Assembly (NCBI GenBank): GCA_028706415.1
Contig: JAQWBK010000001.1
Coordinates: 1-51,190, forward strand
Reading direction: 5' to 3'
DNA: 51,190 nt
Source of the DNA: Oscillospiraceae bacterium
GTDB lineage: Bacteria; Bacillota; Clostridia; Oscillospirales; Acutalibacteraceae
The translations under genes were made by a program, and so were the position numbers. A model generated the notes under the pieces. That model saw only the letters and a list, made by a program, of their open reading frames with translations, searched no databases and had not been told where the DNA came from. Shown here one piece after another: positions 14,470-49,361 of this stretch; position 1 is the first letter of the stretch, and every line of letters starts with the position of its first letter.

Positions 14470-14514
14470 GCCGAAAACAAAGATACTGCCCAAAAGGGCA
14501 GTATCTTTGTTTTT
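14470..14514. terminator. Boundary hairpin, copy 1 of 2 identical 45-bp sequences; terminator of the minus-strand gene array
   Basis: The sequence is GCCGAAAACAAAGATACTGCCCAAAAGGGCAGTATCTTTGTTTTT. It forms an 18-bp perfect stem (14474-14491 / 14496-14513) with a 4-nt loop. It lies 58 nt beyond the stop of the last minus-strand gene and is identical to 49317-49361. Confidence 0.8.
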
Positions 14515-14572
14515 TCTTATGGCTCGGAATAGCTGCCTGAATTTCAAATACACTGAATTTCAACTGCTTTTT

Positions 14573-15583
14573 CTATTTAACCCGAACGATCCTATTCTCT
14601 CGAATGGCAATATCCGCAGATATTGCCGTGCAGAAGGCGCTGTATACTTCGTCAATTGTCGGATTGGCAGGCACATTTTTTTCAATCATCTCAATCAATG
14701 TGCTTATCTGAGCGTACATATCCTTATACTCCGCCTGCATGTTAATGGTCTCATACTCACCGATATCGCTGTGGTAAATTGAGATCAAGTCGCCCTCTTC
14801 GCAGTTTGATGAACGATGATCCTTTAGTTCAAGCGAAATGCGACCCTTATCTCCGATGAACTCTTTAAGATTCTGGGATGCGGTGTTTTTACTCCAACCA
14901 GCTTCATAAAAACCGATGCAGCCGTTTTCAAGCTTAGCCGTAATCAGACCGTAGTTGGGGTGTTCGGTATCAGGCTCTATGCGTGTACCAATGCCCCCTA
15001 CCTCTATCACCGGCGATCCGGTAAACCATTGCATAATGTCTATGTAATGAACGCCGCAGTCAACTATCGGGGAGCAATCGTCAAGAAGTCTGTTATAACG
15101 CTCCCAATCCATTGCGTGGTGGTTCTGAACCATTCTAATGACACGGATGTTTCCAATCTCTCCGCTTTGTAATAGTTCCCGTATTTTCATATATGACCGA
15201 TTATGCCGAAGGATATGTGCGATTAGCACCTTGCTTTCGGACGCCTTAACCGTATCATAAAATTCCCTGCCATCTTCAGCCGTTGTTGCAATAGGCTTCT
15301 CGCATAATACATGTTTCCCGGCAGCAAGACAATCCTTCAAAATCTCCAGATGGGTCGCTGCGTAGGATGCAATAATAACGATATGTGTATTTGCTTCATT
15401 CAGATACTTCCGATAATCCGTTCCGTAATGAAGCGCATTATATTTCTTTGCGGCTTCCTTTGCTTTATCTATCTGGGGATCTATCACCGCAATGATTTGA
15501 ATATTGTCGCGATAATAAATATCTGCAAGATGCTGTAGTCCTATATGCCCGCAGCCGATCATCAGTATACCATATTGCTTCAT
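14573..15583 (-). CDS. Gfo/Idh/MocA-family NAD(P)-dependent oxidoreductase
   Basis: The N-terminal Rossmann motif is MIGCGHIG. The conserved EKP motif is VLCEKP. The C-terminal alpha/beta domain and length are typical of the family. Confidence 0.88.
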   Translation of the reverse strand: MKQYGILMIGCGHIGLQHLADIYYRDNIQIIAVIDPQIDKAKEAAKKYNALHYGTDYRKYLNEANTHIVIIASYAATHLEILKDCLAAGKHVLCEKPIATTAEDGREFYDTVKASESKVLIAHILRHNRSYMKIRELLQSGEIGNIRVIRMVQNHHAMDWERYNRLLDDCSPIVDCGVHYIDIMQWFTGSPVIEVGGIGTRIEPDTEHPNYGLITAKLENGCIGFYEAGWSKNTASQNLKEFIGDKGRISLELKDHRSSNCEEGDLISIYHSDIGEYETINMQAEYKDMYAQISTLIEMIEKNVPANPTIDEVYSAFCTAISADIAIRENRIVRVK

Positions 15584-15676
15584 TAACCATCAAACCTTAA
15601 GTTATATTTAGAATTATAGAAAATTCATCTGCATTTCAGTGAAGCAAGGCAAGAGCGATGCCCTTGCCTTGATTTT

Positions 15677-16726
15677 TCATAATGTAATCTCTTTATGCTG
15701 CTGCGCAGAATCATAGATCGCCTGTAATACCTTTGCGGTAATGACCACCGTATCAATATTTGACGGAAGCTTTTCTCCGCTTTGGATGCAATCTATAAAT
15801 GCATTTATCTCATTTTCGAAATGGTTGCGCATATTAAATTCAGGTTTATACGAAACCAGAGCTCCATTTTCAGCAGTGAAAACCTCGAAATCACTGCCAT
15901 ACTGAAGTCGAATACCCGCCTTATCACCCATAAAATCAATATACATTTCGCCTTTTCCGATGTTCTGCGCCCATGCACCGTTCAAGGTAATAACCGGCCC
16001 TTGTGTGCGTATCATTCCGGTGACGGAATCGTCCACATCATAGATTCCATCATAATTCGGAGGCCCCGCCCACATATCCTTGTATGTATAATCGTGCATG
16101 TTCTTTCCCAGCTTACAGAATGTCTCCCCCGATACGGTTAAAGGGCTGGGATCACCGCAGCAATACATGACAATATCAAGGAAGTGTACGCCCCAGTCGA
16201 TCAGTGCGCCGCCGCCTGCAATCGCCTTGGTCGTGAATGCACCCCCAAGACCCGGTATTGAGCGATGCGCCCGGAAGCTGATGTAGACATGAAAAACCTC
16301 TCCAAGCTTACCGTCGTCTATATACTTTTTAATATGGTTCACACCGTCATTAAATCGATTGACAACACCGATATTAAGCACCTTGCCTGTTTCTTGCTGT
16401 ACCCGCTGCATTTCCAGCGCCTCGTCATAGGTTCTCGCGGCGGGTTTTTCACACAGCACATGCTTACCAGCCCTGAGACAATCTATGGCAATAATCGAAT
16501 GGACGTTATTGGGAGTACAAACCGAAACAGCCTCCACCTCATCATCCGCCAATATTTCGTGATAATCACTCACGGCTATACCGTAGCCGTATTTCTCAAC
16601 AGCGGCTCCTGCGCGCTCGGGAATGATGTCGCAGAAATACTTAATCTGCGCTATTTCGTTTTTTATGTATGCCGGTATATGTGCTGCGTTCGCTATCGAC
16701 CCGCAACCGATAATTGCTATTTTCAT
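15677..16726 (-). CDS. Gfo/Idh/MocA-family NAD(P)-dependent oxidoreductase
   Basis: The N-terminal Rossmann motif is IIGCGSIA and the EKP motif is VLCEKP. It is a paralogue of the neighbouring gene but clearly divergent. Confidence 0.88.
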   Translation of the reverse strand: MKIAIIGCGSIANAAHIPAYIKNEIAQIKYFCDIIPERAGAAVEKYGYGIAVSDYHEILADDEVEAVSVCTPNNVHSIIAIDCLRAGKHVLCEKPAARTYDEALEMQRVQQETGKVLNIGVVNRFNDGVNHIKKYIDDGKLGEVFHVYISFRAHRSIPGLGGAFTTKAIAGGGALIDWGVHFLDIVMYCCGDPSPLTVSGETFCKLGKNMHDYTYKDMWAGPPNYDGIYDVDDSVTGMIRTQGPVITLNGAWAQNIGKGEMYIDFMGDKAGIRLQYGSDFEVFTAENGALVSYKPEFNMRNHFENEINAFIDCIQSGEKLPSNIDTVVITAKVLQAIYDSAQQHKEITL

Positions 16727-36109: not shown

Positions 36110-37024
36110 TTATAATGACTCCGCTTCATTTTTCAGAATACGCTTTCTGTATTCGACAGGAGCGCATCCCATGGAACGCCTGAACATCTTGTAAAAGCTC
36201 TGTACCGTCTCATAATTTAAGACTTCAGCGATTTGAGTAATGCTGTTGCGCTCATCCTTGAGCAACTCTTTGCTAACTTCAATTTTTTTATTATTAATGT
36301 ACTGCTGCAGCGTTATCCCCATCTTCGCCCGAAATAGATGGGATATATATGACGGACTATAACATAAGTCTGTGGCAATATCTTTTATACTCTTAATATT
36401 TAAAATATTATTATCTACATATCGAATAACAGAATAGGTGGTATGTCCAACAATCAGTTTTACCTTTGCTTCCTCAACCGACTGATGATAATTATCTGCA
36501 CCTTCCATCCTAAATATTCTGTATATATGTATCAGAATTTGATTGACATAAGAGTTTATCATGATTTTATTAAGTAATTGCTTGGCATAGATCTCACTCA
36601 AAAGCTGATTGAAATAGGTGCGTGTGTGATTTTTGTCATTAAGCAGAAAAAGCTGGGGATTGTTATAGAATTCCAGTATCTCATTTATGCCGCTTTTTTT
36701 GGCTTCGGGCTTGAAATTGAACCCGATATAAGTATATCTGAGTTGCTCATCCTTATCGGCCAGAATTTTATGAACGCTTCCTTTGGGTATTATATGAATA
36801 TCCCCTTGTGAAGCTTCCATTGCCTTGCCGTTTGTGAAAAATGTGCACCTTCCGGACACAATATAACTAATCTCATTGCATATCTGGGTATGTGCCATTA
36901 CCTCATATCCAGATTCCACAACCAGCTCGCCTGTCTGAACAACATCAACATAGTCCAATGAGATTGGATCCTCAAACCAGTTTTCAAAATGATAGGTTTT
37001 CCCCAGAACCTCCTCTTCGTACAA
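36110..37024 (-). CDS. AraC-family transcriptional regulator (cupin sensor plus dual HTH)
   Basis: The N-terminal region is cupin-like (GDIHIIPKGSVHKI). The C-terminal AraC HTH region reads IKDIATDLCYSPSYISHLFRAKMG...IAEVLNYETVQSFYKMFRRSMGCAPVEYR. Confidence 0.9.
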   Translation of the reverse strand: MYEEEVLGKTYHFENWFEDPISLDYVDVVQTGELVVESGYEVMAHTQICNEISYIVSGRCTFFTNGKAMEASQGDIHIIPKGSVHKILADKDEQLRYTYIGFNFKPEAKKSGINEILEFYNNPQLFLLNDKNHTRTYFNQLLSEIYAKQLLNKIMINSYVNQILIHIYRIFRMEGADNYHQSVEEAKVKLIVGHTTYSVIRYVDNNILNIKSIKDIATDLCYSPSYISHLFRAKMGITLQQYINNKKIEVSKELLKDERNSITQIAEVLNYETVQSFYKMFRRSMGCAPVEYRKRILKNEAESL

Positions 37025-37163: not shown

Positions 37164-38120
37164 ATGTTTAACTACAAAGGGCTAGTCATATATCAGGATG
37201 AGATCTCCTCTTATTGGAACGGTTTATTATTAAAGTCAGATTTGAATTTGATCGGCATCCATCCCGTCGGAGGTTTAACCGGAGGAAGGGCTGTTGATGA
37301 GGCAATCGAGAACATTAAACGACCGGAGACGCAAGCTCTTTTAAACGAGCTGAAAAGCCATAACATTAATATCGAATATGAAATGCATGCACTTTCATGG
37401 CTGCTGCCCCGGGAATTATTTCAAACACACCCCGATTGGTTCAGGATGAACGACCGGCAGGAGCGGGTTAACGATTATAATCTATGTCCGTCCAACAAGG
37501 ACGCCCTTGATTATGTATCTCAAAGAGCAGCAATCCTTGCAAATATTTTCACACCTACTACCAACCGTTATCATTTCTGGCTGGACGATCATACCGATTC
37601 TAAATGCCGCTGTCATGAATGCACTAAATTGACCGCCTCGGATTCGTCCCTTTTGGTTTACAATGCCATTCTTAAGGGAATTAAAACCGTAAACCCGTTA
37701 GCAAGTCAGTGTTATTTAGCATACCATGATACATTAATTCAGCCGTCTTGTGTGGAACCTGAGCCAGGAATTTTTTTGGAATATGCCCCGATGAACAGGG
37801 ATTTAAATATTCCTTTATCCGACAAGAGTTCCGTTAAAAATGCAGGTCAGATCAAGCCGCTGGATGACCTTTTGGGCTTTTTCGGTACTAAAAACGCCAA
37901 AGCGCTGGACTACTGGCTGGACAATTCATACTTTTCCGAATGGGAAAAGCCTATGAAATATTTTACGCTTAACAAAGATGTTGTCAAAAGGGATGCTGAA
38001 TTTTACCGAAACAAGGGCTTTGATACCGCTACCTGCTTTGCTTGTTTTCTGGGAGAAGAATATTATAACCTGTATAATGAATTCCCGAATATCCAATCTT
38101 ACTGTGACGCAATTAGATAG
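37164..38120 (+). CDS. Short (318-aa) DUF4838-like protein, catalytic-core-only paralogue, cytoplasmic
   Basis: It aligns by eye with the core of the four long paralogues (HALSWLLPRELFQTHPDWF ... CPSN ... WLDDHTDSKCRCHEC ... YLAYH). It lacks their N-terminal domain and the C-terminal IPWVQG/LRWPLWYV region. Confidence 0.65.
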   Translation: MFNYKGLVIYQDEISSYWNGLLLKSDLNLIGIHPVGGLTGGRAVDEAIENIKRPETQALLNELKSHNINIEYEMHALSWLLPRELFQTHPDWFRMNDRQERVNDYNLCPSNKDALDYVSQRAAILANIFTPTTNRYHFWLDDHTDSKCRCHECTKLTASDSSLLVYNAILKGIKTVNPLASQCYLAYHDTLIQPSCVEPEPGIFLEYAPMNRDLNIPLSDKSSVKNAGQIKPLDDLLGFFGTKNAKALDYWLDNSYFSEWEKPMKYFTLNKDVVKRDAEFYRNKGFDTATCFACFLGEEYYNLYNEFPNIQSYCDAIR

Positions 38121-38421: not shown

Positions 38422-40089
38422 ATGGTGGGAAACAGAAATCCTGTCTATTCCGATATGGTTATTGTTCAGGATGGTCACCCCTATGCAACCATTGTTGTGG
38501 CGCAGAATCCTTCATCAAAGGTTTTAAAAGCTGCCGAAGATCTACAAGATATGATTAAGCGCATATCAGGCGCCACGCTTCCAATATCTGATGACCGCCT
38601 GACAGGAGTGGGAAACAGAATCCTGGTCGGGGAATCAAGAGAAACTATCGATATGGGCTTTTTGCAACCGCACGGTTATCCCGACAATGAGCGGGTGATC
38701 TTATGGCGGGACGGTGAAAAGCTGGTTCTCATGGGAAATGACGATGAGGTGTTCACAGGTACGCAGTTTGCTGTAACCATGCTGCTCGAAAGGCTTGGTT
38801 GCGGGTGGTACGGCATTGACGAGCTATGGCAGGTCATCCCTAAGAAAGATAACCTTTGTGTCGGATATTTACATATAGATCATACACCGGCTTTCAGCTC
38901 CCGCCGGAACTGGGTTCTGAGAACAAATCGCGAACTGAGTCTGCGATGGTATCTCGGAGGCAGCGAAAAAGAAATCGAACACGCATACTGGCGGCTGTTC
39001 CCGCGTGAAATATATTTTGAACAACACCCCCAGTGGTACTGTCTGATTGACGGCGTTCGGAATCCTTTTATTGAATGGTGGCAGATGTGCTATTCAAACC
39101 CTGAAGTTGTACAACAAACGATCGAAAAAATTGACAGGTTTATTATTGATAACCCAACCTATACCCAGGCTACTCTTTCGGCAAACGATGGCTTTTTCGA
39201 AGGCTTTTGCGAGTGTGAAGAATGCCGAAAAATGGGTACGCCCGGAGAAACAATGGTTAGGTTTGTCAATCAGGTTGCTGAAGGCCTTGAAAAATCGCAT
39301 CCTGATAAGCACCTCATGATTTTTATCTATTTCCCCACCTATGACCCGCCGAGAACAAAAATGCCGCTGCACAAAAATGTCATGCTGATGTTCTGTAAGG
39401 AGTCCTGTATGTTCCATTCCGTTGATACCGGACCGGACTGCGGATATCATATCCGGTATCAATATGAATTCGGGCATACCTTTTATGAGCTGCCCTGGCT
39501 GGAAAACGCTAAAAAGTGGATGGATATGACCGACTGCAAAAATGTTTCAATATGGGAGTGGTATTGCCCTGCTGCAGCTCTTCCGGTTTGGAAGGATATA
39601 CCGTGGGTGCAGGGCGATGTAGCCACCCGCAACCAACGCTGTTTTAAGGAACTGGGCGCTCAGTACATATATTACGATCAGGGACCGGTAGATGCGTATA
39701 ACGATACCCAGTCAAGCTATCCGCTACGGTGGCCGCTGTGGTATGTCGTGGCAAAAGGTATGTGGGACATGCATATAACAGCATCCGAAATTATTATGGA
39801 AGCCTGCAAAAAACTTTTTGAAGAAGCTGCCGATCTCATGTTCTCTTATTACAGCTGCCTTGCAGATATCAATGAAAGCTGTGACGCAAAGGCAATTGCG
39901 TGGCATATGCCCGAGCCCTATGAATTTTATACTCCCGAGGCTATATCAAGGGTTGACAGAATCGTCAATTTGGGTGAAAGCATCCTCCCCCAGGTATCAA
40001 AAACCGTGCGGCTCAGAATGGAAAACCAATTTTCGCTTTGGCGTAAAGCAAATGAAGTCATTCAGGAAACCAAGCCCGGTGATAAATAA
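38422..40089 (+). CDS. DUF4838-like putative glycosidase, cytoplasmic form (right arm)
   Basis: It is a paralogue of 18747..20426. Motifs are LGCGWYGIDELW, HPQWY, ANDGFFEGFCECEEC, IPWVQGDVATRN and LRWPLWYV. There is no signal peptide. A GGGGG RBS lies 8 nt upstream. Confidence 0.8.
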   Translation: MVGNRNPVYSDMVIVQDGHPYATIVVAQNPSSKVLKAAEDLQDMIKRISGATLPISDDRLTGVGNRILVGESRETIDMGFLQPHGYPDNERVILWRDGEKLVLMGNDDEVFTGTQFAVTMLLERLGCGWYGIDELWQVIPKKDNLCVGYLHIDHTPAFSSRRNWVLRTNRELSLRWYLGGSEKEIEHAYWRLFPREIYFEQHPQWYCLIDGVRNPFIEWWQMCYSNPEVVQQTIEKIDRFIIDNPTYTQATLSANDGFFEGFCECEECRKMGTPGETMVRFVNQVAEGLEKSHPDKHLMIFIYFPTYDPPRTKMPLHKNVMLMFCKESCMFHSVDTGPDCGYHIRYQYEFGHTFYELPWLENAKKWMDMTDCKNVSIWEWYCPAAALPVWKDIPWVQGDVATRNQRCFKELGAQYIYYDQGPVDAYNDTQSSYPLRWPLWYVVAKGMWDMHITASEIIMEACKKLFEEAADLMFSYYSCLADINESCDAKAIAWHMPEPYEFYTPEAISRVDRIVNLGESILPQVSKTVRLRMENQFSLWRKANEVIQETKPGDK

Positions 40090-40114: not shown

Positions 40115-42094
40115 ATGATGGATTTAACCTTTAAAAACTTGTCTCTTAAAAGCGCAAATCTTAACCGGGAAAGTGCATTTCCTTCAATAATACCGGTTAT
40201 AAATGTTCAAACAGAAAAGTCCGTTTCTTTGGATGAGGAAGATGAGATATTTTTTGATATAGGGAAAATCCGGAGTATTTACCCTTATAACCAGCAGGAT
40301 CTGTATGACCGCTCCCTTGAAGATCGTAAGTATAAAGCCGCGGTTCTTGAAAACAATTACCTGAAAGCGATTTTCTTGCCCGAGCTTGGCGGAAGACTAT
40401 GGTCGCTGTATGACAAAATTTCCGGAAGGGAGCTTTTGTATTTAAACGACAGTATAAGATTTTGCAATCTGGCGCTCCGCAACGCATGGTTCAGCGGCGG
40501 CGTTGAATGGAACATTGGGATGATCGGGCACACTCCGTTCACCTGCGAACCCTTATTCACTGCTCGTCTAAAAGCCTCTGATGGAACTCCGATACTGAGA
40601 ATGTATGAATATGAAAGGCTCCGCGGTGTCACCTATCAGATGGATTTCAGCCTGCCTGGGAATTCCCAAATGCTACTGTGCCGTATGCGGATATGCAATC
40701 TGCAAAACCGCACCATTCCCATGTATTGGTGGAGTAATATGGCCATCAGGGAACAAAAAGATGTTCGGGTTATAGTGCCCGCCGATTCGTCCTATTACAG
40801 CACCGGGAATACCATCAGCAAGACCACGGTACCCATACGAAAGGGACGAGATGTGTCATATCCTGTGAACACCGATAGCTCGATGGACTATTTTTACCGT
40901 ATTCCGGATGGGAAAAGAAATTACATCGCAGCGGTTGACCGGACAGGACAAGGAATGGTGCAAACCTCTACCCGCCGCCTAAGGGGAAGAAAGCTGTTCG
41001 TTTGGGGGCAGTGCCAAGGTGGGCATACTTGGCAGCGCTTTTTGACTGATAAAGCGGGTGATTATGCAGAAATCCAGGCAGGGCTTGGGCGCACTCAGTA
41101 TGAATGTATCCCCATGCCGCCGCTCAGCGCATGGGAGTGGGTCGAAGGTTATGGCGCACTTAACGCCAATCCCAGTGCCGTACACGGTGACTGGGACACA
41201 GCTCAAATCGAAGTGGAAAACAGACTTAATGAGATTGCTACCGAAAAGTGGTTTGATGATTATTTGAAATCCTCATTAAAGGATTACACCCTAAAAAAAG
41301 GAGAGGTCATTCAATACGGCTCGGGTTTCGGAGCTCTTGAAAGCCTAAGAAGATTAAAGTCGGGGGAGAAATTTCCCGATCACCTTGATTTCGGAAAACC
41401 GGATGAAAAACAGCAGCATTGGTTGCAGCTACTCGAAACCGGAAAGCTTCCCAGCCCTAACCCCAAAGAAAGCCCTCCTTCTTATATGCTCGACGATAAA
41501 TGGTTTGAATTATTAAAAGAAAGCTGTAAAAATGATGCGACCAACTGGTACGCCCATTATCATATCGGTATGTTCCTTATCGGACGCGGTGATTATCTTA
41601 ATGCCGCGCGGAGTCTTGAAACATCTTGGTCAATACAGCCGTCATGCTGGATCAGCTATGGGCTGGCGGCCTGCTGTTATGCAGACGGTGACCTTGAAAA
41701 CGCAGTCAAACATATACTGGATGCACTGAAGTTTAATCCGGATGATGTATCTCTTGCAAGGGACTGTTTTAGATTTATGTATGAGGCCGATATGTTTGGT
41801 GAAATACAGGAGTGCTATAAAAATATTTCTGTCTCCCTCCAACAGGACGGCAAACTTAAATTCTACCTTGCCGTCGCCTATGCGAAAATGGGTGAGTTGG
41901 AAAAAGCAGAGTCACTGCTATATGAAAATGGTGGTTTGATAATCCCCGTCATTCGGGAAGGCGAGGTTTCGCTTACATCTCTATGGTTTTTCATTGAAGA
42001 GCAGAAACACATAAAGCGCGGCGAGATTTTTGATGCAAATATTCAGCCTCCCGAATTTTTAGATTACCGTACTGCTGTTAAAAATGAAACTTAA
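40115..42094 (+). CDS. DUF5107-like domain protein with C-terminal TPR repeats (cytoplasmic, function unknown)
   Basis: The N-terminal ~400 aa carry NAWFSGGVEWNIGMIGHTP and RKLFVWGQCQGGHTWQRFL, which I remember as DUF5107-type patterns. The C-terminal part is TPR-like (WYAHYHIGMFLIGRGDYLNAARSLE, KFYLAVAYAKMGELEKAE). Confidence 0.55.
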   Translation: MMDLTFKNLSLKSANLNRESAFPSIIPVINVQTEKSVSLDEEDEIFFDIGKIRSIYPYNQQDLYDRSLEDRKYKAAVLENNYLKAIFLPELGGRLWSLYDKISGRELLYLNDSIRFCNLALRNAWFSGGVEWNIGMIGHTPFTCEPLFTARLKASDGTPILRMYEYERLRGVTYQMDFSLPGNSQMLLCRMRICNLQNRTIPMYWWSNMAIREQKDVRVIVPADSSYYSTGNTISKTTVPIRKGRDVSYPVNTDSSMDYFYRIPDGKRNYIAAVDRTGQGMVQTSTRRLRGRKLFVWGQCQGGHTWQRFLTDKAGDYAEIQAGLGRTQYECIPMPPLSAWEWVEGYGALNANPSAVHGDWDTAQIEVENRLNEIATEKWFDDYLKSSLKDYTLKKGEVIQYGSGFGALESLRRLKSGEKFPDHLDFGKPDEKQQHWLQLLETGKLPSPNPKESPPSYMLDDKWFELLKESCKNDATNWYAHYHIGMFLIGRGDYLNAARSLETSWSIQPSCWISYGLAACCYADGDLENAVKHILDALKFNPDDVSLARDCFRFMYEADMFGEIQECYKNISVSLQQDGKLKFYLAVAYAKMGELEKAESLLYENGGLIIPVIREGEVSLTSLWFFIEEQKHIKRGEIFDANIQPPEFLDYRTAVKNET

Positions 42095-42113: not shown

Positions 42114-43004
42114 TTGCTACGTGGCTTGAAATTTCATTTTAATAATGAATATTCATGTGAACCTGTGAGATGCGGTTCCATTCTTATGTGGCAAATCGGC
42201 GACATCGGTTGTGACCCCGGCTATGTAGTAAAGGATCACGAGCAATGTTGCTATGAAATCACCTGCGTTGTGGGTGGCCGCGGCTCAATATCCCGAAATG
42301 ACAAATTTTACGACATTCATAAAGGGCAGCTTTTTTTGAACCGTTGCGGGGAAATACATTGTATAAAATCGGATGTAATGGAGCCTATCCGCTACTTTTA
42401 CCTTGGATTTGATTTTGATAAAAAACTAACACAAGGAATATGGAAGGATATTAAGGACGCTTTTGACGAATGCGAAAACCCGCTGGCCAATGATATATCC
42501 GATGTTCACAATATCTTTTCAAGCGTTTTTAACGAAATGATGACCAATGACACGGCATCCCAGAAAATGATTGAATATTCCGTTTATCAAATACTTTTGC
42601 TCTCATACCGCGCTCTTATGCTGAAAAATCCCCGCCGTTACATATCGGGAGAGCCCATGGAGCAGTCGCGACAGCTGATTTATTCGATCATCGTCTATAT
42701 TGACACAAATATTTGTGCAATAGAGCATCTGAACGATGTTAGCAAACAGGTCGGATACAGCTATACCTATATATCCAGACTCTTCACAAAGGTTGTAGGT
42801 AAATCCCTCAGGAATTATTACAATGAAAAAAGATTTGAAAAGGCCGTTGGCTTTCTGGCGTCCGGAATGAAAAGCACGCAGGTCGCCACTCTACTTAATT
42901 ATAAATCTCTGCATAGCTTCAGCAAAGCCTTCAGTAATTATTACGGTATGTCACCTACCCAATACAAGGAAAAAGTTTTAAACAAAAATAAGGACAATTG
43001 TTAA
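42114..43004 (+). CDS. AraC-family transcriptional regulator (cupin sensor plus dual HTH)
   Basis: The TTG start has GGGGGTG upstream. The cupin-like part reads KGQLFLNRCGEIHCI. The AraC HTH reads LNDVSKQVGYSYTYISRLFTKVVG...VATLLNYKSLHSFSKAFSNYYGMSPTQYK. Confidence 0.88.
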   Translation: MLRGLKFHFNNEYSCEPVRCGSILMWQIGDIGCDPGYVVKDHEQCCYEITCVVGGRGSISRNDKFYDIHKGQLFLNRCGEIHCIKSDVMEPIRYFYLGFDFDKKLTQGIWKDIKDAFDECENPLANDISDVHNIFSSVFNEMMTNDTASQKMIEYSVYQILLLSYRALMLKNPRRYISGEPMEQSRQLIYSIIVYIDTNICAIEHLNDVSKQVGYSYTYISRLFTKVVGKSLRNYYNEKRFEKAVGFLASGMKSTQVATLLNYKSLHSFSKAFSNYYGMSPTQYKEKVLNKNKDNC

Positions 43005-43059: not shown

Positions 43060-43977
43060 ATGGGGATTTTTATGAGAATCATGGGTTTGGATTGTGGAGT
43101 GACCGAAATACGCGGCATTGTATGCAACCAGGACGGAAAAGTTCTTAATACTGCACGAATGGCTGCAGAGTCAGGTGAGGGCTTTTTTAAATATATTCAT
43201 AATATTCAGTCCCTGGTAAATACACTTGCACAACCTTACAGCGAAATTAGCTGCGTCGGGGTGGCTTCAACCGGCCGTATCGATCCCCAAAACGGGATCG
43301 TTTTAAATTCTACAATCCCGGGTTATACAGGAATCAACCTTCGTGTGGTGGTCAGTTCGGTGCTTGATGTGGATGTTGTGGTACAAAATAGTGACCGTGC
43401 AGCCCTAATAGGTGAAAGCTGGATGGGTGCTGCAAAAGGCTACAAAGATGTCGTTCTTTTAACATTGGGAACCATTGTCGGCGGCGCAACCATGATTGAC
43501 GGAAACATTCACCACGGCAGTAGTTTTCGCGCAGGTGAGTGGGGGCATATGCAGCTTATCCCAAACGGGAAACCCTGTTCATGTGGAAGGACAGGCTGTC
43601 TGGAGCAATACATAGCGACAAGTATCCTTTCGGAACAAATGGAAAGAGTGCTTGGCCTAAACGCCTGCAGGGAGGAATACCATGAGCTTTACCCGGGCGA
43701 AAATGAAAATATTGCAGCCGTTCTTGGTGAATTCACCGGTCATCTTGCCTGGGCGGTGGGAAACATAGAAGCTACCGCGGATCCCGAACTGGTTTTGATT
43801 GGTGGAGAAAGCTTTGAATGGTTTGATATTTTTTCACCCCTTCTTTCCGGCGAACTGGCAAAACGAAACATCCGTCTTCCGGTCAAAAAAATACTGCTAG
43901 GCTCAGATTCAGGTTGTATTGGAGCAGTTAAGCTTGCACTTGAAAATTGTCAATGTACGAAAAATAAAAATAAATAA
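43060..43977 (+). CDS. ROK-family protein, sugar-kinase type (no N-terminal HTH)
   Basis: The ROK zinc motif CSCGRTGCLEQY and the ExGH motif GEWGHM are present. The N-terminal phosphate loop is the unusual GLDCGVT. An alternative start is ATG 43075. Confidence 0.85.
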   Translation: MGIFMRIMGLDCGVTEIRGIVCNQDGKVLNTARMAAESGEGFFKYIHNIQSLVNTLAQPYSEISCVGVASTGRIDPQNGIVLNSTIPGYTGINLRVVVSSVLDVDVVVQNSDRAALIGESWMGAAKGYKDVVLLTLGTIVGGATMIDGNIHHGSSFRAGEWGHMQLIPNGKPCSCGRTGCLEQYIATSILSEQMERVLGLNACREEYHELYPGENENIAAVLGEFTGHLAWAVGNIEATADPELVLIGGESFEWFDIFSPLLSGELAKRNIRLPVKKILLGSDSGCIGAVKLALENCQCTKNKNK

Positions 43978-44004: not shown

Positions 44005-44982
44005 ATGCAAAAACAAGCAAGAAGATTTATGGTTTTTTTCTTAGCCTTAAGTTTCATGTTCGGTACATTCATGGGATTTTCCGCTCAGGCCTTGACCGCA
44101 AAAATGATTACGATTAAAACAAACAGCGACATCAACCCCTTCATCCGCATAGGGCTGCATAAGAGAACCTTTGCATCAGGCGGCCCATTTACAGTGAAAT
44201 GTGAAATAAAAATAGACAGCTATCAGAAGTTAAAGCCCGACAGTAATATTTTTGTAAATATTACAGACGGACGCGATCCCGAAAATATGGTTGTATGGTT
44301 GAATCAATACCGAAAACCAACCGACGGATGGGTTGAAATGAAGCAGGACAACGGCAATTTTATAACCTTCAACAATATCGATAAGGTGATGATTAGCGGT
44401 GCGTTTGAGGAATTCGCCCTTCTGCAAATGGGTGCTTATTTTGTAAAAGGTGTCGTCTCTTTCCGCAATTTCCGTGTTTACAACGCTGCCAATATGATAG
44501 TTTATTCCTGGGACACCGATGAGAATTTTAAAGAAGTTACAAATCTGAAGGACTTCGGCGGAGATACTGCTTTTGCCTGCACATTTGGAGACGGCTCGGG
44601 TGAATTTCAAGTCTCGAATTCAGATCTCTCCGGTAAGACTTCCGCTGCGACCACCACAAAGGATGACGGGCCTCTTTATGAGAGCACCACCTCGTCGTCA
44701 ACTAATAAAACCACCCCCACAAAGGCAATCGACACAACCAGTCTTTTGGAGACTACCACAACTTCATCAGACGAAGAAACAGCCGAAACAACCGATGAGA
44801 TTGTTGACGACACAACCCTTGTTAGCACAACCTCTACCCTTGCTTCAGATGTTGAAACAGATGAAAAGGAAAGCTCAATTTTATGGTTGCCAATATCCAT
44901 CGTTGGCGGATTAATAATACTCCTTGGAACGGCATTCCTCATTCTGTGGAAAACAAAAAAACTCCCATGGCAGAATAATTAG
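44005..44982 (+). CDS. Surface protein with one CBM-like domain, T/S-rich stalk and a C-terminal TM anchor (right arm)
   Basis: It is a paralogue of 24450..25430 (ITIKTNSDINPFIRIGL...GGPFTVKCEIKID...FRNFRVYNAANMIVYSWDTD). It has a signal peptide, a stalk, and the TM helix LPISIVGGLIILLGTAFLIL. Confidence 0.7.
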   Translation: MQKQARRFMVFFLALSFMFGTFMGFSAQALTAKMITIKTNSDINPFIRIGLHKRTFASGGPFTVKCEIKIDSYQKLKPDSNIFVNITDGRDPENMVVWLNQYRKPTDGWVEMKQDNGNFITFNNIDKVMISGAFEEFALLQMGAYFVKGVVSFRNFRVYNAANMIVYSWDTDENFKEVTNLKDFGGDTAFACTFGDGSGEFQVSNSDLSGKTSAATTTKDDGPLYESTTSSSTNKTTPTKAIDTTSLLETTTTSSDEETAETTDEIVDDTTLVSTTSTLASDVETDEKESSILWLPISIVGGLIILLGTAFLILWKTKKLPWQNN

Positions 44983-45033: not shown

Positions 45034-46077
45034 ATGAGCATTATGATTAATAGATTAAACGCACAATTTAAGAATGTTTTTCAGACAGCCGACAGGTTTA
45101 TGGAGGATAATAAACAACATTATCTAAATAAAAGCGGAGGCTTTTTGAAGAGCGCCGGCAAGGCCGTTTTGATGGTGGGTTTGTGCTTTGTAATGTTATA
45201 TCCAATGCTGTTTATTCTGTCCGCAAGCTTTAAAACGCTGGATGACTTGTATAATCCTTCTGTGGTCTGGTTGCCGCGTTCATTTAATATGGAAGCCATG
45301 AAAATTGCGTTGGCACTCATGAAATACTCAGAGTCTGTTTTAAAAACACTTACAATAATGATTCCAAGCGTTTTATTTCAGTTGGTCGCCGTCCTCATGA
45401 CCGGATACGGCTTCGCAAGATTTAAATTCTGGGGGAAGAATCTACTTTTCGGATTTTTGATTTTCACAATCATTGTTCCAGTGCAGTCATACATCATCCC
45501 TCTGTATGTTAACCTGAAGAACTTTAATTTCTTTGGGGTGGGGTCGCTTATAGGTCTTGTCAGTGGCCAAGCCGTGACTACAAACCTGCTGGATACCAAC
45601 ACCCTCTTCTATTTGCAGGCAATACTGGGTATGGGTATAAGGTCCGGATTGTGCATTTTTATCATTCGTCAGTTCTTTAAAAACATTCCTGTGGAGCTTG
45701 AGGAAGCGGCCACAATTGACGGCTGCGGACCCATCAGAACATTCATGAGGGTTATGATCCCGAATGCGCTGCCGCTTATAGCTACAGTTGTTGTTTTCTC
45801 AATTGTATGGTATTGGAACGATTTTTATTTATCATCAATGTTTTTCCGCACTGATTTCCCTCTATCCGTCAACCTTACAACCCTGAGAACTACTCTAAGC
45901 TCATCAGATCAGGTGGTTAACGGTGTTTCCGGAATATCCAGTCAGGAGCTTGTGCTTATGAGGGAACCGATTTTGGCGTGCGGGTGCCTGATTACGGTCT
46001 TGCCGCTTGTTATTTTTTATGTGTTTTTGCAGCGCTATTTTACCGAAGGCGTAGAAAGAAGTGGCATTGTCGGCTGA
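45034..46077 (+). CDS. Carbohydrate ABC transporter permease (MalG-like, right arm)
   Basis: The EAA loop is VELEEAATIDGCGPIRTFMRVMIPN. It is a close paralogue of 21812..22834. An alternative start at ATG 45043 has better RBS spacing. Confidence 0.9.
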   Translation: MSIMINRLNAQFKNVFQTADRFMEDNKQHYLNKSGGFLKSAGKAVLMVGLCFVMLYPMLFILSASFKTLDDLYNPSVVWLPRSFNMEAMKIALALMKYSESVLKTLTIMIPSVLFQLVAVLMTGYGFARFKFWGKNLLFGFLIFTIIVPVQSYIIPLYVNLKNFNFFGVGSLIGLVSGQAVTTNLLDTNTLFYLQAILGMGIRSGLCIFIIRQFFKNIPVELEEAATIDGCGPIRTFMRVMIPNALPLIATVVVFSIVWYWNDFYLSSMFFRTDFPLSVNLTTLRTTLSSSDQVVNGVSGISSQELVLMREPILACGCLITVLPLVIFYVFLQRYFTEGVERSGIVG

Positions 46078-46130: not shown

Positions 46131-47417
46131 ATGAAAAATCATTTTATAAAATTAGTGCTGTCGGTAATTTTGGTGCTTATAATAATTTTTATATCTGCGT
46201 GTAATAAGCCCGCGGTTTCGGGAACCTCATCAAATGATCAAAGCAAAACATTGAACTTGGATTCGGAAAAAGGCAAAAAACTAACATTTATGCTTCCGGC
46301 CTTCAATTATGATGATACGAATAAGTGGGAAAATAAAGTCTTGAAAGAATTTAAGGAAACCTATCCTGATGTAACCTTGGAGCTCTTATCCGCCAGTATT
46401 GAAAACTGGATGGTAAAGCTTCTTGCCAACGCAAGCGGCGGCGACCCTATAGATGTTTTTCAGGATAGCGCCAACAATAATCCGATGTACGCCCTTCAGG
46501 GCATCAATCAGCCGCTTCAGGATTACATAGACATGAACAACCCCAACCTCCATATGGCGACCATGGATGCCGTATTCAAATACAACGGAAATTACCATGT
46601 CGCAGTTGCAGAATCCAGCGTGTGCATAGTTTATTATAATAAAGATATTTTTGAAAATGAGGGCGTAGATACGCCTGATGAACTTTACAAGGCGGGAAAA
46701 TGGGATTTCGATAATATGATCCGGGTCGCAAAAGAGCTCACTTACAACAACAATAGCGGTAAACGCTGGGGGCTGGCTTGCAATTATCCGTATATATTCT
46801 TCGGCGCAAATGCTACCTCGATGGTAACGCTGGATAAGAACTACAAATATAATTTGAACATTAACGACCCGAATCTAAAGTATTCGTTTGAAGTCATACA
46901 GGATGCATGGTATAAAAGCAAATGGCAGGGCTGGCAAGGTACTCCGTGGAATTCATTTTATAACGGCTCGGCAGCAATGCTGACGGATTTCAAATGGGTC
47001 GAGGAGCAGATTATCGAGGCGAAGAACTACGGATTGTGCGATTTTGAATACGGCGTAGTTCCTATGGCTTCCGGCCCCAACAATCCGAAAGGGCTTGCAC
47101 CCATGACCGCGTTTGGGTTTGCAATGGGTAAAGAAAGCGATACTCCGTATCATTCGGGTATTCTTATCGATATGCTGATAAACGGTGAAGCAGCGCATAA
47201 AAAAGAGACCGGTAAGGTTATCCCCGCCGAACACCAAGAGGTGTATAACAAGCTTTCACTGATTCCGTTTTGCATTAACAGCTATGATTCTGCTGTGGGC
47301 GGAGCCTTTGAGATATGCCAGGCAATAGGTGCCGGTCAAAGCATCTCACAGGCTATTGCGGAATACACCCCGATTTATCAGCAGAAGATTGATCAGGCAA
47401 ACGGCGATAACAAGTGA
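46131..47417 (+). CDS. ABC transporter extracellular solute-binding lipoprotein (right arm)
   Basis: I set the start at ATG 46131 (MKNHFIKLVL...FISAC lipobox) with GAAAGGAAC upstream. The track ORF start at 45978 overlaps the permease. It is a paralogue of 20438..21739. Confidence 0.88.
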   Translation: MKNHFIKLVLSVILVLIIIFISACNKPAVSGTSSNDQSKTLNLDSEKGKKLTFMLPAFNYDDTNKWENKVLKEFKETYPDVTLELLSASIENWMVKLLANASGGDPIDVFQDSANNNPMYALQGINQPLQDYIDMNNPNLHMATMDAVFKYNGNYHVAVAESSVCIVYYNKDIFENEGVDTPDELYKAGKWDFDNMIRVAKELTYNNNSGKRWGLACNYPYIFFGANATSMVTLDKNYKYNLNINDPNLKYSFEVIQDAWYKSKWQGWQGTPWNSFYNGSAAMLTDFKWVEEQIIEAKNYGLCDFEYGVVPMASGPNNPKGLAPMTAFGFAMGKESDTPYHSGILIDMLINGEAAHKKETGKVIPAEHQEVYNKLSLIPFCINSYDSAVGGAFEICQAIGAGQSISQAIAEYTPIYQQKIDQANGDNK

Positions 47418-47442
47418 TATATGAAGCAACTGGAGGGTAAAT

Positions 47443-49311
47443 ATGAAAGGCATCAAGAAAATCGGTTTTGGGCTGTTGACCAAGATATTGGCCTTAACAC
47501 TGGTCGCTTGTAATGTATCCGATGTTACAAGCAGCAGCACCGCTTCCAAGCATGAAGATAACCCCGTTACGAATGGGATAACCTCAACCTCAAAACGCCA
47601 AACAGATAATAGTACAAAAGCCGACAGCACTACGGTCACTACAGCGGCTCCGACTTCAACCACAGTAGTTGTCAAGCCCCAGCCATCGGATTTCATTATC
47701 GCGGAAAATTCAATAGCAAAATCGACCATTGTTATCCCTGCATCCCCCTCCGATAAGGTGAGAGCCACTGCTGAAGAATTACAGAAATATTTAAAGAAAA
47801 TTTCGGGCGCCGGCATTGCGATTGGATTTGATAATGTTGACCGGACAAACGGCAACTTTATCCTGGTCGGCCCCACCGCCCAGACCAAAGCCATGGGTAT
47901 AAAAATCCCGACCGGTTACCCCGATAACGAAAGAGTAATAGTTAAACGAAACAAAAATTACATCGCGCTTATAGGCAATGACGACGGTGAATTCACAGGA
48001 ACCGAGTTTGCTGTTAATATGTTCCTTGAAGAGTTGGGATGCGGCTGGTATGGGCCGGATGAGCTGTGGCAGGTTGTCCCCGAACATAATACTCTTGCTA
48101 TCAAAAAGCTGGATATAAACCATACCCCCCAGTTCAAATCAAGAATAAGCAATGTATGGTTTAATTATCAGAAGTTTTCGAAAAAATGGTACATGGGGGG
48201 AGCAAAAAAGTTTGTAGGGCACGGTGTGACGCAGCTTATTCCGCGAGAAACTTATTTTCCGACCCATCCGGAATGGTTTGCTGAAGTGGACGGCAAGCGC
48301 GATCCCTTTGATGCTTTTTACTGGCAGTATTGCTATACAAACAAGGAACTGGCTTCTGAAGTCGGGAAAAAAGCAATTGCCAAATTTGACGCTGATCCAA
48401 ACCTAACTCAATACTCCGTTGCTGCCAACGACGGTTGGGAAGAAGATTGGTGTGAATGTTCGGTATGTTCGAGTCTGGGTAATGATACAGACGAGCTGCT
48501 TACCTTTGCAAACAATGTCGCCAAGGTGGTTGCAAAAAAATATCCTAATAAAAAGATTTCTATTTTAAGCTACCATTCAACATTTTTCCCGCCTGAGAGC
48601 AGCATAAAAGCAGAGCCTAATGTCGAGGTCATGTTCTGCCGGGAAACAAGCATGACTGTACCGCTTGATCTAAATCTTAAAATTCCAACAGGCTTTAACT
48701 CGATAACACATAACACATACACCCAGTCTTGGCTCGGAAATTTTAAAGATTACATCAATAAAACAAATTTAAAGCACCTTTCCATCTGGGAATGGCACTG
48801 CATCGCTGCCGATAAAACCGTCTGGTCTGAGATCCCGTGGGTGCAGGGCAATGTGTCTTCCAGAAATCAAAAGCTGTGGAAAGATAACGGTGTTTCCTAT
48901 ACCTATTATGATCAGGGGCCAAGCCCGACATATAATGAGACCGAAAAAAGCTTTTCCCTTCGCTGGCCTCTTTGGTATGTATCGGCAAAGGGTATGTGGG
49001 ATGGGCGTTTTACCGGTGAGCAGATCTTAAAACAAGCTTGCGATAAGCTTTACGGCAAAGCCTCGGCGGAAATGTATGAATATTATAAAGCTCTGGCCGA
49101 CAGCAGCGAACAGTGCAGGTCATCAAACAGTGTCGCATGGATACCGCCAAATCCTGGTGAAGTTTATACAACTGCAAGAATTACGGTAATTGATAAGGCG
49201 GTCAGCGCAGCAAAAGCAAAGTTAAGCAGCGCTACCCCAGTTCAAAAGCAACGCATGGAGAATCAGTTCAAATCCTGGGAAAACGCCAAGCTCCTGATAA
49301 AATTAGGTTAA
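47443..49311 (+). CDS. DUF4838-like putative glycosidase, extracellular lipoprotein form (right arm)
   Basis: The lipobox is LVAC and an S/T-rich linker follows. It is highly similar to 16861..18750 along its full length (e.g. ANDGWEEDWCECSVC, KAEPNVEVMFCRETSMTVPLDLNL, ITHNTYTQSWLGNFK). A strong GGAGGG RBS is present. Confidence 0.82.
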   Translation: MKGIKKIGFGLLTKILALTLVACNVSDVTSSSTASKHEDNPVTNGITSTSKRQTDNSTKADSTTVTTAAPTSTTVVVKPQPSDFIIAENSIAKSTIVIPASPSDKVRATAEELQKYLKKISGAGIAIGFDNVDRTNGNFILVGPTAQTKAMGIKIPTGYPDNERVIVKRNKNYIALIGNDDGEFTGTEFAVNMFLEELGCGWYGPDELWQVVPEHNTLAIKKLDINHTPQFKSRISNVWFNYQKFSKKWYMGGAKKFVGHGVTQLIPRETYFPTHPEWFAEVDGKRDPFDAFYWQYCYTNKELASEVGKKAIAKFDADPNLTQYSVAANDGWEEDWCECSVCSSLGNDTDELLTFANNVAKVVAKKYPNKKISILSYHSTFFPPESSIKAEPNVEVMFCRETSMTVPLDLNLKIPTGFNSITHNTYTQSWLGNFKDYINKTNLKHLSIWEWHCIAADKTVWSEIPWVQGNVSSRNQKLWKDNGVSYTYYDQGPSPTYNETEKSFSLRWPLWYVSAKGMWDGRFTGEQILKQACDKLYGKASAEMYEYYKALADSSEQCRSSNSVAWIPPNPGEVYTTARITVIDKAVSAAKAKLSSATPVQKQRMENQFKSWENAKLLIKLG

Positions 49312-49316
49312 TAACA

Positions 49317-49361
49317 GCCGAAAACAAAGATACTGCCCAAAAGGGCAGTATCTTTGTTTTT
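49317..49361. terminator. Boundary hairpin, copy 2 of 2 identical 45-bp sequences; terminator of the plus-strand gene array
   Basis: It is identical to 14470-14514. The stem is 49321-49338 / 49343-49360 with loop AAAA. It begins 6 nt after the stop codon and is followed by a T-run. Confidence 0.85.

Follow-up and report, generated by a model that had tools for sequence, protein, structure and literature searches.

The 35-kb island described here lies in a window of 51,190 nucleotides (the whole stretch of DNA analysed) and is a real sugar-polymer harvesting cluster of an uncultured gut-type Clostridium. An earlier note had read it as a locus for glycan capture, import and catabolism, and our analysis agrees. 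The analysis shows which genes and families are present, what folds are predicted, which localisation signals the proteins carry and how far gene order is conserved; all activities and the substrate are inferred. The island is probably a polysaccharide-utilisation locus of the Gram-positive type, from an uncultured Clostridium of Oscillospiraceae/Ruminococcaceae type, and would be built in two layers. The first would be a widely conserved core cassette with a membrane-anchored DUF5696 protein. The second, lineage-specific layer would comprise five DUF4838 proteins, three stalk proteins, the second and third binding proteins, a DUF5107 protein, a ROK kinase and two AraC regulators, together with two Gfo/Idh/MocA oxidoreductases that would belong to this genome only.

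Island layout and importers

The 24 genes previously counted between two boundary hairpins are confirmed by the ORF list, by Pfam scans and by genes called independently on a contig of the same organism in Logan. The hairpins are real, being one 45-nt sequence, GCCGAAAACAAAGATACTGCCCAAAAGGGCAGTATCTTTGTTTTT, present twice in the same orientation; 0.02 matches per window to the 18-nt arm are expected by chance. The features are as follows.

14470..14514, no strand: left boundary hairpin; 18-nt perfect arms, 4-nt loop, A-run before, T-run after
14573..15583, -: generic cytoplasmic Gfo/Idh/MocA oxidoreductase, 336 aa (Pfam)
15677..16726, -: DgpA-like Gfo/Idh/MocA oxidoreductase, 349 aa, GFO349 (PDB 7xr9)
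16861..18750, -: DUF4838 lipoprotein, 629 aa, predicted extracellular glycosidase (Pfam 137 bits; CxCxxC and N-D motif)
18747..20426, -: DUF4838 protein without signal peptide, 556-559 aa, predicted cytoplasmic glycosidase (Pfam 133 bits)
20438..21739, -: lipoprotein solute-binding protein of importer 2, 433 aa (Pfam SBP_bac_1)
21812..22834, -: ABC permease of importer 2, 340 aa (Pfam)
22940..24385, -: secreted two-domain protein, 481 aa, putative surface glycan binder (no Pfam/NCBIfam match)
24450..25451, -: secreted one-domain protein, 326-333 aa, Thr-rich stalk, C-terminal membrane anchor (no family)
25571..26542, -: ABC permease, 305-323 aa, MalF-type partner in importer 2, core cassette (Pfam; synteny)
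26557..28863, -: DUF5696 protein with N-terminal signal/anchor, core cassette (Pfam 561 bits)
28879..30951, -: NHL-repeat and Yip1 membrane protein, core cassette (Pfam)
30971..31819, -: ABC permease of importer 1, 282 aa, core cassette (Pfam; synteny)
31904..32875, -: ABC permease of importer 1, 316-323 aa, core cassette (Pfam; synteny)
32956..35859, -: giant solute-binding protein, 967 aa, core cassette (Pfam)
36110..37024, -: AraC-type regulator with cupin sensor domain (Pfam)
37164..38120, +: short cytoplasmic DUF4838 protein, 318 aa (Pfam 46.6 bits; His, Asp and CxCxxC retained)
38422..40089, +: cytoplasmic DUF4838 protein without signal peptide, 555 aa (Pfam 131.6 bits)
40115..42094, +: cytoplasmic DUF5107+TPR protein, 659 aa (Pfam; PDB 5cd6, E 4e-17)
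42114..43004, +: AraC-type regulator (Pfam)
43060..43977, +: ROK-family sugar kinase (Pfam; NCBIfam under all cut-offs)
44005..44982, +: secreted one-domain membrane-anchored protein, 325 aa (no Pfam match)
45034..46077, +: ABC permease, 344-347 aa, sole permease of the right arm (Pfam)
46131..47417, +: lipoprotein solute-binding protein, 428 aa (Pfam; gene call)
47443..49311, +: DUF4838 lipoprotein, 622 aa, lipobox LVAC, predicted extracellular glycosidase (Pfam 133.6 bits)
49317..49361, no strand: right boundary hairpin, identical to the left

By Pfam, transport is represented by three SBP_bac_1 binding proteins and five BPD_transp_1 permeases; the candidate enzymes are five DUF4838 proteins, one DUF5696, one DUF5107+TPR, two Gfo/Idh/MocA oxidoreductases and one ROK kinase; the remainder comprises the NHL+Yip1 protein, two AraC regulators and three proteins without a match. 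This is the family make-up proposed earlier, save that Pfam detected no TPR in the NHL/Yip1 protein. Three ABC importers had also been proposed, which is too many. The binding proteins and permeases stand, but the right arm holds a single permease, and no ATPase gene was found by Pfam among the 24 genes. The third binding protein, which most likely starts near 46131 rather than at the maximal ORF start of 45978, is 63% identical to that of importer 2, and the right-arm permease is 67% identical to the one at 21812..22834; this third binding protein and the single right-arm permease probably depend on a permease that also serves importer 2. In the PDB, the importer 2 binding protein found only weak matches, to manno- and arabino-oligosaccharide binders.

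The earlier note called the three stalk proteins CBM-like, a putative label. Each has a signal peptide, one or two domains of about 190 aa, a stalk rich in Thr and, at the C-terminus, a membrane anchor; the profile of the domain matches nothing in PDB or Pfam. The two-domain protein is kept in related loci, and the two one-domain proteins are paralogues (47% identity).

Gram-positive polysaccharide-utilisation loci, as in Roseburia and Eubacterium, combine a CUT1 ABC importer, a regulator and glycosidases. The island follows the same logic, with enzymes and binders at the surface, import that depends on binding proteins, enzymes in the cytoplasm that finish the breakdown, and a regulator within the locus. 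It differs in having two importers interleaved with NHL/Yip1 and DUF5696 genes in fixed order, and in the 570-aa extension on its first binding protein.

The core cassette and its DUF5696 protein

The unexpected result of the analysis is the core cassette, on which we found no paper. It runs from the giant binding protein through two permeases, NHL/Yip1 and DUF5696 to two further permeases. Of 80 species loci, which come from Clostridia, Paenibacillus and spirochaetes, 62 keep this order in full. The C-terminal part of the binding protein is SBP_bac_1/8, and its N-terminal ~570 aa have no PDB match and no family. The NHL/Yip1 protein, which is two separate genes in many species, combines an extracellular NHL-repeat (β-propeller-type) region with a C-terminal multi-pass Yip1 domain.

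The DUF5696 protein (~735 aa, counted from an internal Met) is confidently modelled with a GH129/GH101-type α-glycosidase fold and appears to be a remote GH129 homologue. Its AF2 model (pLDDT 89.4) has three domains, the whole arrangement being common to GH129/GH101 (TM-score 0.69-0.74, normalised to target). Foldseek placed GH129 first (5opq, E 1.9e-34; 5wzn, E 4e-28), with GH101, GH36 and GH31 below it. Pfam gives no GH129 match. The DUF5696 profile matches GH129 sequences (E 1.6e-8 and 8.5e-7) over the N-terminal domain, barrel start and C-terminal domain, leaving unaligned the central barrel, where the catalytic residues are expected; identity is ~14%. The invariant D236 and E665 lie off the expected positions, the canonical β4 Asp is not family-wide (D485 in 31 of 55), and for the nucleophile the best candidate is D570, an Asp in just 44 of 55. 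GH129 includes NagBb, an α-N-acetylgalactosaminidase of Bifidobacterium bifidum, and ZgGH129, a 3,6-anhydro-D-galactosidase of Zobellia; unlike these, the DUF5696 protein is membrane-anchored and its gene is embedded between ABC permease genes.

In other species the cassette adjoins GH32, GH26, GH130, GH10, GH43, GH95, GH13 and GH106 genes, which argues against a single fixed α-GalNAc-type role. The invariant residue set of DUF5696 stays constant whichever glycosidases adjoin, which could point to one ligand shared by all hosts and would suit a locus that serves to remodel or recycle surface glycans of the cell itself. Such a non-nutritional role is extremely unlikely, since a catabolic locus typically contains CUT1-type importers that depend on binding proteins, sugar-sensing AraC regulators and a ROK kinase, and since the island has neither a glycosyltransferase nor a flippase.

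Predicted DUF4838 enzymes and the possible substrate

PF16126 (DUF4838) is the catalytic domain of CAZy families GH163 and GH185 (PMC10570127), two GH20-related families of retaining β-N-acetylglucosaminidases with measured activities (PMC10570127, PMC12834350). The GH163 member BT1035 is an endo-β-GlcNAcase acting on complex N-glycans and the GH185 member Sp_0475 a 6-sulfo-β-GlcNAcase (PMC10570127); the acid/base Asp sits in a CxCxxC-bearing loop (PMC10570127, PMC11776370, PMC12834350). The earlier note had found no enzyme of a characterised family and had regarded the chemistry as unassigned; neither claim holds, and the CAZy placement by HMM that it had named beforehand as refuting was found at domain level.

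Against a Pfam gathering score of 26.6, four paralogues score 131-137 bits and the 318-aa one, a form kept in relatives at 317-326 aa, scores 46.6. All five retain CxCxxC with Asn-Asp directly before it. Across 38 aligned subfamily sequences, these five included, H193, D262, C269, C271 and C274 (as in the 18747..20426 protein, whose homologues were found solely among Clostridia MAG proteins) are invariant and N261 nearly so. Judged by these motifs, the window paralogues look catalytically intact. Lipoprotein signals could be read off two of the five sequences and none off the other three, a distribution that fits outside-then-inside processing. The two lipoproteins are 64% identical, the left one having a signal peptide with Cys, a Ser/Thr-rich linker, an N-domain and a catalytic domain; the two longer leaderless proteins are 50% identical.

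BT1035 of Bacteroides thetaiotaomicron, the GH163 founder, cuts GlcNAc-β1,2-Man. It shares PF16126, a surface lipoprotein form and a glycan-utilisation locus with the window proteins, a likeness at domain level. Its locus is of the Bacteroidota SusC/D type, whereas theirs is Clostridial with ABC importers, and they lack its C-terminal F5/8 type C domain, which counts against our preferred reading. Sp_0475 of Streptococcus pneumoniae, the exo-acting GH185 founder, shares PF16126, CxCxxC after β4 and an Asp in the same loop, and is leaderless and cytoplasmic like three of the five paralogues. It differs in being longer (with the sulfate-recognising R633) and in lying beside a PTS/GH1 locus; its Q174, Y436 and R633 fall outside the residue mapping. 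D262/H193 are equated with Sp_0475 D309/H227 by motif context only. PF16126 also covers a very wide range of sequences: its profile matches 15,933 clusters at 50% identity, and activities are known for two members only, so β-HexNAc specificity is an extrapolation.

It is possible, though less likely, that in the same type of locus the DUF4838 clade attacks a polysaccharide of plant or microbial origin, and does so by something other than β-HexNAc hydrolysis, such as a GH115/GH67-like uronidase activity. Close relatives, which by their domains are extracellular carbohydrate-active proteins, carry fused dockerin (type I in the closest multidomain relative; P0361, 752 bits) or CBM_4_9, fusions that hint at plant or microbial glycans; matches to F5/8 type C and Laminin_G_3 were weak and sub-threshold, and the N-domain of one relative matches Glyco_hydro_67N. 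Plant-glycan GH families accompany the core cassette in other lineages. Sialidase, fucosidase, galactosidase, NagA and NagB, usual in host-glycan loci, were not found in the island by Pfam, which also counts against the preferred reading. Against this alternative, the two members of PF16126 that have been characterised are both β-GlcNAcases. N261 and D262 also lie side by side, reminiscent of the paired catalytic residues in GH20 and GH84, whose catalysis is substrate-assisted, and the island has no xylanase, mannanase or pectinase. Related MAG loci, including some from the human Hadza gut and chicken caecum, carry the island's unit with DUF4838 and DUF5696 as sole glycosidase candidates.

Predicted cytoplasmic enzymes and proposed pathway

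DUF5107 is unlikely to be a depolymerase, since its fold is mutarotase-like by Foldseek. A galactose-mutarotase-like β-sandwich is followed by a helical repeat domain (AF2 pLDDT 93.5; GalM 4bze, E 9e-12), and H139 and E319 are invariant. The whole protein matches 5cd6 (BDI_1685, function unknown). A putative mutarotase-like protein, it differs from GalM (galactose mutarotase/aldose 1-epimerase) in its extra C-terminal TPR domain and in having no Aldose_epim Pfam match. That every candidate enzyme has a DUF name in Pfam, in line with the earlier note, that NCBIfam names none, and that the literature searched mentions no function for DUF5696 or DUF5107 would suit wholly undescribed depolymerising chemistry, with no protein related to a characterised glycosidase family. 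This is very improbable: DUF4838 contradicts it at domain level, as do the GH129-like fold and homology of DUF5696 and the mutarotase fold of DUF5107.

GFO349 aligns over residues 1-280 with DgpA (7xr9, E 4.8e-52), the Gfo/Idh/MocA glycoside 3-dehydrogenase of C-glycoside-cleaving gut bacteria, and matches other sugar 3-dehydrogenases in the PDB; the best PDB matches of its neighbour are PmdC and DgpA (~1e-20). A mainly oxidative route, in which a 3-keto-glycoside is formed and eliminated and the DUF proteins are accessory, could be drawn from this. It is very unlikely, as Pfam finds no DgpB/DgpC-type or other lyase partner in the island, and the pair, outside the conserved unit, is absent from every related locus examined and thus appears to be a late add-on at the operon end. 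The ROK kinase scores alike against glucokinase, ManNAc kinase and GlcNAc kinase in the PDB.

In the hydrolytic pathway that we favour, the glycan would be cleaved outside the cell by the two lipoprotein DUF4838 enzymes, which by analogy with GH163/GH185 would be retaining β-N-acetylhexosaminidase-type enzymes using substrate-assisted catalysis. It would be kept at the surface by the stalk proteins together with the NHL domain and the binding protein that carries the N-terminal extension. DUF5696 may remove an α-linked residue. Fragments would enter through two CUT1-type ABC importers with an ATPase encoded elsewhere. Cleavage would be completed by the three DUF4838 proteins that lack a leader and act in the cytoplasm; there, too, DUF5107 would interconvert anomers, the ROK kinase would phosphorylate the released sugar, and the oxidoreductases would modify sugar or glycoside at a secondary hydroxyl, the two divergent operons being controlled by the AraC regulators. 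The substrate is still unassigned, as the earlier note had it, and no characterised orthologous locus was found in the literature searched; the candidate enzymes either are members of glycosidase families reported from 2017 onwards or are similar to them.

Gene content and borders of the island

The by-eye inventory of 24 genes at 14470-49361 was reproduced by an ORF list, translations and Pfam scans, and the identical set of 24 gene calls was obtained on a Logan contig assembled from the same organism. Pfam identified two Gfo/Idh/MocA oxidoreductases, five DUF4838 proteins, three solute-binding proteins (SBP_bac_1), five permeases (BPD_transp_1), two AraC regulators, a ROK kinase, and one protein each with DUF5696, NHL plus Yip1, and DUF5107 plus TPR; 3 of the 24 proteins had no Pfam match. 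The glycan locus of the earlier note is real, and its role in glycan utilisation by a Gram-positive bacterium is, in our view, very probable; what the analysis shows directly is its gene content, its predicted folds, its localisation signals and its synteny. The genes form two divergent operons with their junction at 37024-37164.

Three ABC importers had been counted by eye. By Pfam, two of these systems each have an SBP_bac_1 and two BPD_transp_1 proteins (CUT1-type), and the third, in the right arm, has a single permease. The binding protein of this third system probably starts near 46131, according to the Logan gene call. No ABC ATPase gene was found by Pfam among the 24 island genes, which is common for CUT1-type ABC sugar importers.

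The left flank consists of housekeeping genes (YfhO, an HtrA-like protease, a two-component system, AddAB and DUF218) and the right flank of DegV. The AddAB genes (5669-12664) have a G+C content of 0.52-0.55, compared to 0.41-0.48 for the island and the other flanks. The two boundary hairpins (14470-14514 and 49317-49361) are one 45-nt sequence in equal orientation, with identity ending exactly at its borders, and a 34,862-bp Logan contig of the same organism ends within this repeat. Att sites of a mobile island were considered and rejected, as the identity covers only 45 nt and the genome contains other small intergenic repeats; since an integrase is also absent, the repeat is probably a dispersed terminator or REP-like element. 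A search of the window for Rfam families and tRNAs returned none. Within an 857-nt gap (13716-14572), where no ORF, Rfam match or tRNA was found, 14247-14375 resembles 1377-1505 (71% over 129 nt), 14156-14189 resembles the reverse complement of 1509-1542 (94%) and 14245-14275 resembles 50449-50479; such repeats are common to other intergenic regions.

Candidate enzymes and their chemistry

According to the earlier note, both the substrate and the bond-cleaving chemistry of the island were unassigned. The part on the substrate stands, but the statement on chemistry is outdated for DUF4838, now a GH163/GH185 domain, and weakened for DUF5696, which is GH129-like. Structure prediction and Foldseek placed DUF5696 with GH129 and DUF5107 with mutarotases.

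All five DUF4838 paralogues (PF16126; 137.2, 133.4, 131.6, 133.6 and 46.6 bits) lie above the gathering score of 26.6 bits. PF16126 is the catalytic domain of GH163 and GH185, which are distant kin of GH20 (PMC10570127). The GH163 founder, BT1035 of B. thetaiotaomicron, is a surface endo-β-N-acetylglucosaminidase acting on GlcNAc-β1,2-Man of complex N-glycans, and the GH185 founder, Sp_0475 of S. pneumoniae, is a cytoplasmic exo 6-sulfo-β-GlcNAcase, retaining by experiment and with evidence of substrate-assisted catalysis (PMC10570127). BT_1035 is independently listed under GH163 (PMC12834350). At the level of the domain, DUF4838 now has a known function, that of a glycosidase catalytic domain. 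A C-x-C-x-x-C motif is conserved after β4 of this domain, in the loop with the putative acid/base (PMC11776370); it reads CECSVC, CECTEC or CRCHEC in the paralogues. In an alignment of 38 sequences (the five paralogues and 33 homologues), C269, C271, C274, H193 and D262 were invariant and N261 nearly so. By their order and motif surroundings, D262 and H193 are possible counterparts of D309 (acid/base) and H227 of Sp_0475, an enzyme that also has a sulfate-recognising arginine, R633, plus Q174 and Y436.

As read from the sequence, two of the five paralogues are lipoproteins with Ser/Thr linkers (16861..18750 and 47443..49311) and three are leaderless (18747..20426, 37164..38120 and 38422..40089). 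A leaderless cytoplasmic form characterises GH185 (cluster 3 of the PF16126 similarity network). BT1035 has a C-terminal F5/8 type C module, whereas Pfam detected none in the five paralogues. The short paralogue of 318 aa is not a fragment, since its length is conserved among relatives.

By word-indexed search the DUF4838 clade of the window is narrow, with 214 matches, the named ones all from Clostridia MAGs and annotated "DUF4838 domain-containing"; the PF16126 superfamily as a whole is very large, with 15,933 clusters at 50% identity (E ≤ 0.001). A single-sequence PDB search with DUF4838 gave nothing useful, and NCBIfam had no name for any DUF protein of the island. Close relatives are fused to dockerin or CBM_4_9 domains (matches to F5/8 type C or Laminin_G_3 were weak and sub-threshold), which indicates extracellular carbohydrate-active enzymes and does not fix the substrate. 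A metagenome protein of 1815 aa (P0361; 752 bits to the window clade) is probably a cellulosome component because it carries a type I dockerin; its N-terminal 1,190 aa had no Pfam match.

The dockerin and CBM_4_9 fusions also speak for the main rival explanation, a plant or microbial glycan degraded by different chemistry, as do a GH67N-like N-domain in one DUF4838 relative, the reported structural resemblance of Sp_0475 to GH115, and the lack of accessory enzymes for host glycans in the island. We consider this rival rather unlikely. β-HexNAc chemistry specifically, the activity of both founders, is the reading we tentatively prefer, at slightly less than an even chance.

For DUF5696, Pfam gave only the DUF5696 family itself (561 bits). 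An AlphaFold2 model built from a 55-sequence alignment (pLDDT 89.4, pTM 0.87) matched ZgGH129 (GH129; 5opq, E 1.9e-34) best in a Foldseek search of the PDB, then the α-N-acetylgalactosaminidase NagBb (GH129; 5wzn, E 4.2e-28), followed by GH101 endo-α-GalNAcases and then by GH36 and GH31. The model has the fold of GH129, an N-terminal β-sandwich, a (β/α)8 barrel and a C-terminal β-domain, with target-normalised TM-scores of 0.69-0.74. A single-sequence PDB search found nothing, and the 55-sequence profile matched the PDB sequences of ZgGH129 (E 1.6e-8) and NagBb (E 8.5e-7). On model and profile comparison, DUF5696 is therefore probably a distant GH129 homologue. Its central barrel, the expected region of the catalytic site, did not align to GH129 in the profile search. 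The pattern of conservation is unusual. Two residues invariant in all 55 sequences, D236 (motif VPDGSGA, N-domain) and E665, lie outside the expected GH129 catalytic positions. At D570 (motif Y-S-D-F), 44 of the 55 sequences and 17 of 17 close relatives have Asp; the corresponding figures among the 55 are 31 for D485 (end of the presumed β4) and 32 for D617. Literature searches that covered DUF5696 and DUF5107, by name and by Pfam accession, and the combination of Yip1 with binding proteins yielded no relevant paper and no reported function for either domain.

The AlphaFold2 model of the DUF5107/TPR protein (pLDDT 93.5) matched 5cd6, of unknown function, and then galactose mutarotases and a hexose-6-phosphate mutarotase in Foldseek. 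It shares the β-sandwich fold of GalM (4bze; E 9e-12, target-normalised TM-score 0.65) and many other mutarotases. H139 and E319, conserved without exception in 45 sequences, may correspond to the catalytic His/Glu pair of GalM. For this cytoplasmic protein, anomerase activity or sugar binding is a likelier role than depolymerisation.

Among the oxidoreductases, the 349-residue protein GFO349 (15677..16726, minus strand) matched the glycoside 3-dehydrogenase DgpA (7xr9) over residues 1-280 (E 4.8e-52, 180 bits). DgpA-type systems have adjacent DgpB/DgpC-type lyase subunits, whereas Pfam revealed no such genes among the 24 of the island. The second oxidoreductase, GFO336 (14573..15583, minus strand), was generic by PDB comparison. 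Neither was found in the related loci examined, where a terminal DUF4838 or DUF5107 gene is followed by housekeeping genes. For the ROK kinase, as for the small binding protein, PDB and NCBIfam matches were unspecific and indicated no sugar specificity.

Three stalk proteins (22940..24385, 24450..25451 and 44005..44982) have, by sequence, a signal peptide, one or two domains of ~175 aa, a Thr-rich stalk and, at the C-terminus, a membrane anchor. The earlier note called these proteins CBM-like; searched as a profile, their ~175-aa domain had no match in the PDB or Pfam and was unrelated to the N-terminal extension found in the giant binding protein (967 aa), and that extension had no match in the PDB.

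A conserved double-importer cassette and a probable mosaic island

The most interesting element of the island is the conserved DUF5696/Yip1 double-importer cassette. A DUF5696 scan of one genome per species yielded at least 592 relatives, of which 80 loci were kept; synteny was determined by phmmer, and ORFs overlapping cassette genes were left out of the neighbour-gene clustering.

Conserved gene orders around DUF5696
Giant binding protein, permease, permease, NHL/Yip1, DUF5696: 67 of 80 loci
DUF5696, permease, (stalk proteins), permease: 72 of 80 loci
Both gene orders together: 62 of 80 loci

In most of the other loci, the end of a contig truncates the gene order. Hosts include Ruminococcaceae and Oscillospiraceae MAGs, Candidatus Avimonas, many Paenibacillus species, Lachnospiraceae, Mahella, Christensenellales and Treponema/spirochaete MAGs. 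NHL and Yip1 form one protein in the window (28879-30951) and its relatives; among loci L016-L082, most of those from Paenibacillus and many of those from Clostridia show two neighbouring matches instead, apparently separate genes.

Among the 80 loci, DUF4838, stalk proteins and DUF5107 occur beside the cassette in the nearest relatives only (L003-L012 and L028). GH32 is found downstream in eight loci (21 ORFs), from Paenibacillus (L013, L016, L020, L021, L024, L039 and L040) and Acetatifactor (L050), with two to three genes each on the strand of the cassette, and four of the Paenibacillus loci (L016, L020, L021 and L024) also have a PfkB kinase gene. This succession of cassette, GH32 fructosidase genes and, in four cases, PfkB suggests a fructan operon with the DUF5696/Yip1 double-importer cassette as its core. 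Other families following the cassette are GH26, GH130, GH10, GH43, GH95, GH13 and GH106. Since the neighbouring glycosidase families vary among loci, the core cassette is independent of substrate-specific enzymes.

A module of stalk protein, permease, binding protein and lipoprotein DUF4838 occurs twice in the island, at 44005-49311 and within 16861-25451, with 47-67% protein identity. Related MAGs contain two separate full loci: type A has DUF5107, AraC and ROK upstream of the core, and type B a short DUF4838 and AraC. One complete cassette copy of each type is present in MAGs CAKUFK01 (L004 and L028) and CALCQJ01 (L007 and L012), and strong ROK matches were confined, among the 80 loci, to type-A loci L003-L007. 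The window island looks like a mosaic whose right arm is a type-A locus minus the core, which leaves one permease partnerless. The ABC system of this arm (45034-47417) has one permease and is missing the MalF-type partner present upstream in every related cassette, and the ROK gene (end 43977) and the stalk-protein gene (start 44005) are separated by a 27-nt gap. Judging by this arrangement, a type-A locus appears to have lost its core cassette cleanly.

Proposed function and significance

From these observations we infer every activity and substrate in the following scheme. The surface lipoprotein DUF4838 enzymes would cleave a glycan, most likely through retaining, substrate-assisted hydrolysis of β-HexNAc bonds. 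The glycan would be held by the stalk proteins together with the extended binding protein and the NHL domain. DUF5696 may take off an α-linked residue. The fragments would be taken up via two ABC importers, and the leaderless DUF4838 proteins, the mutarotase-like protein, the kinase and the oxidoreductases would complete the breakdown, with the AraC proteins regulating the operons. A literature search found no characterised orthologous locus. A broader proposal, speculative and on balance doubtful, is that the core would be an undescribed multi-component surface apparatus of Gram-positives and spirochaetes in which two ABC translocons are coupled to the capture and processing of large oligosaccharides, with DUF5696 as a new glycosidase family distantly related to GH129 and with DUF4838 and other lineage-specific enzymes plugging into this shared platform.

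Loci related to the island occur in human, chicken and ruminant gut metagenomes, which makes them a defined target for enzyme discovery. The DUF4838 clade of the window has no characterised member and could contain new glycosidase specificities, and GH163-type endo-enzymes are of interest as glycan-remodelling tools. DUF5696 is a possible new glycosidase family with more than 590 species representatives, and its fixed pairing with Yip1/NHL and two importers suggests an unstudied uptake module. Solving this cassette would aid the reading of many 'hypothetical' carbohydrate loci in Clostridia and Paenibacillus.
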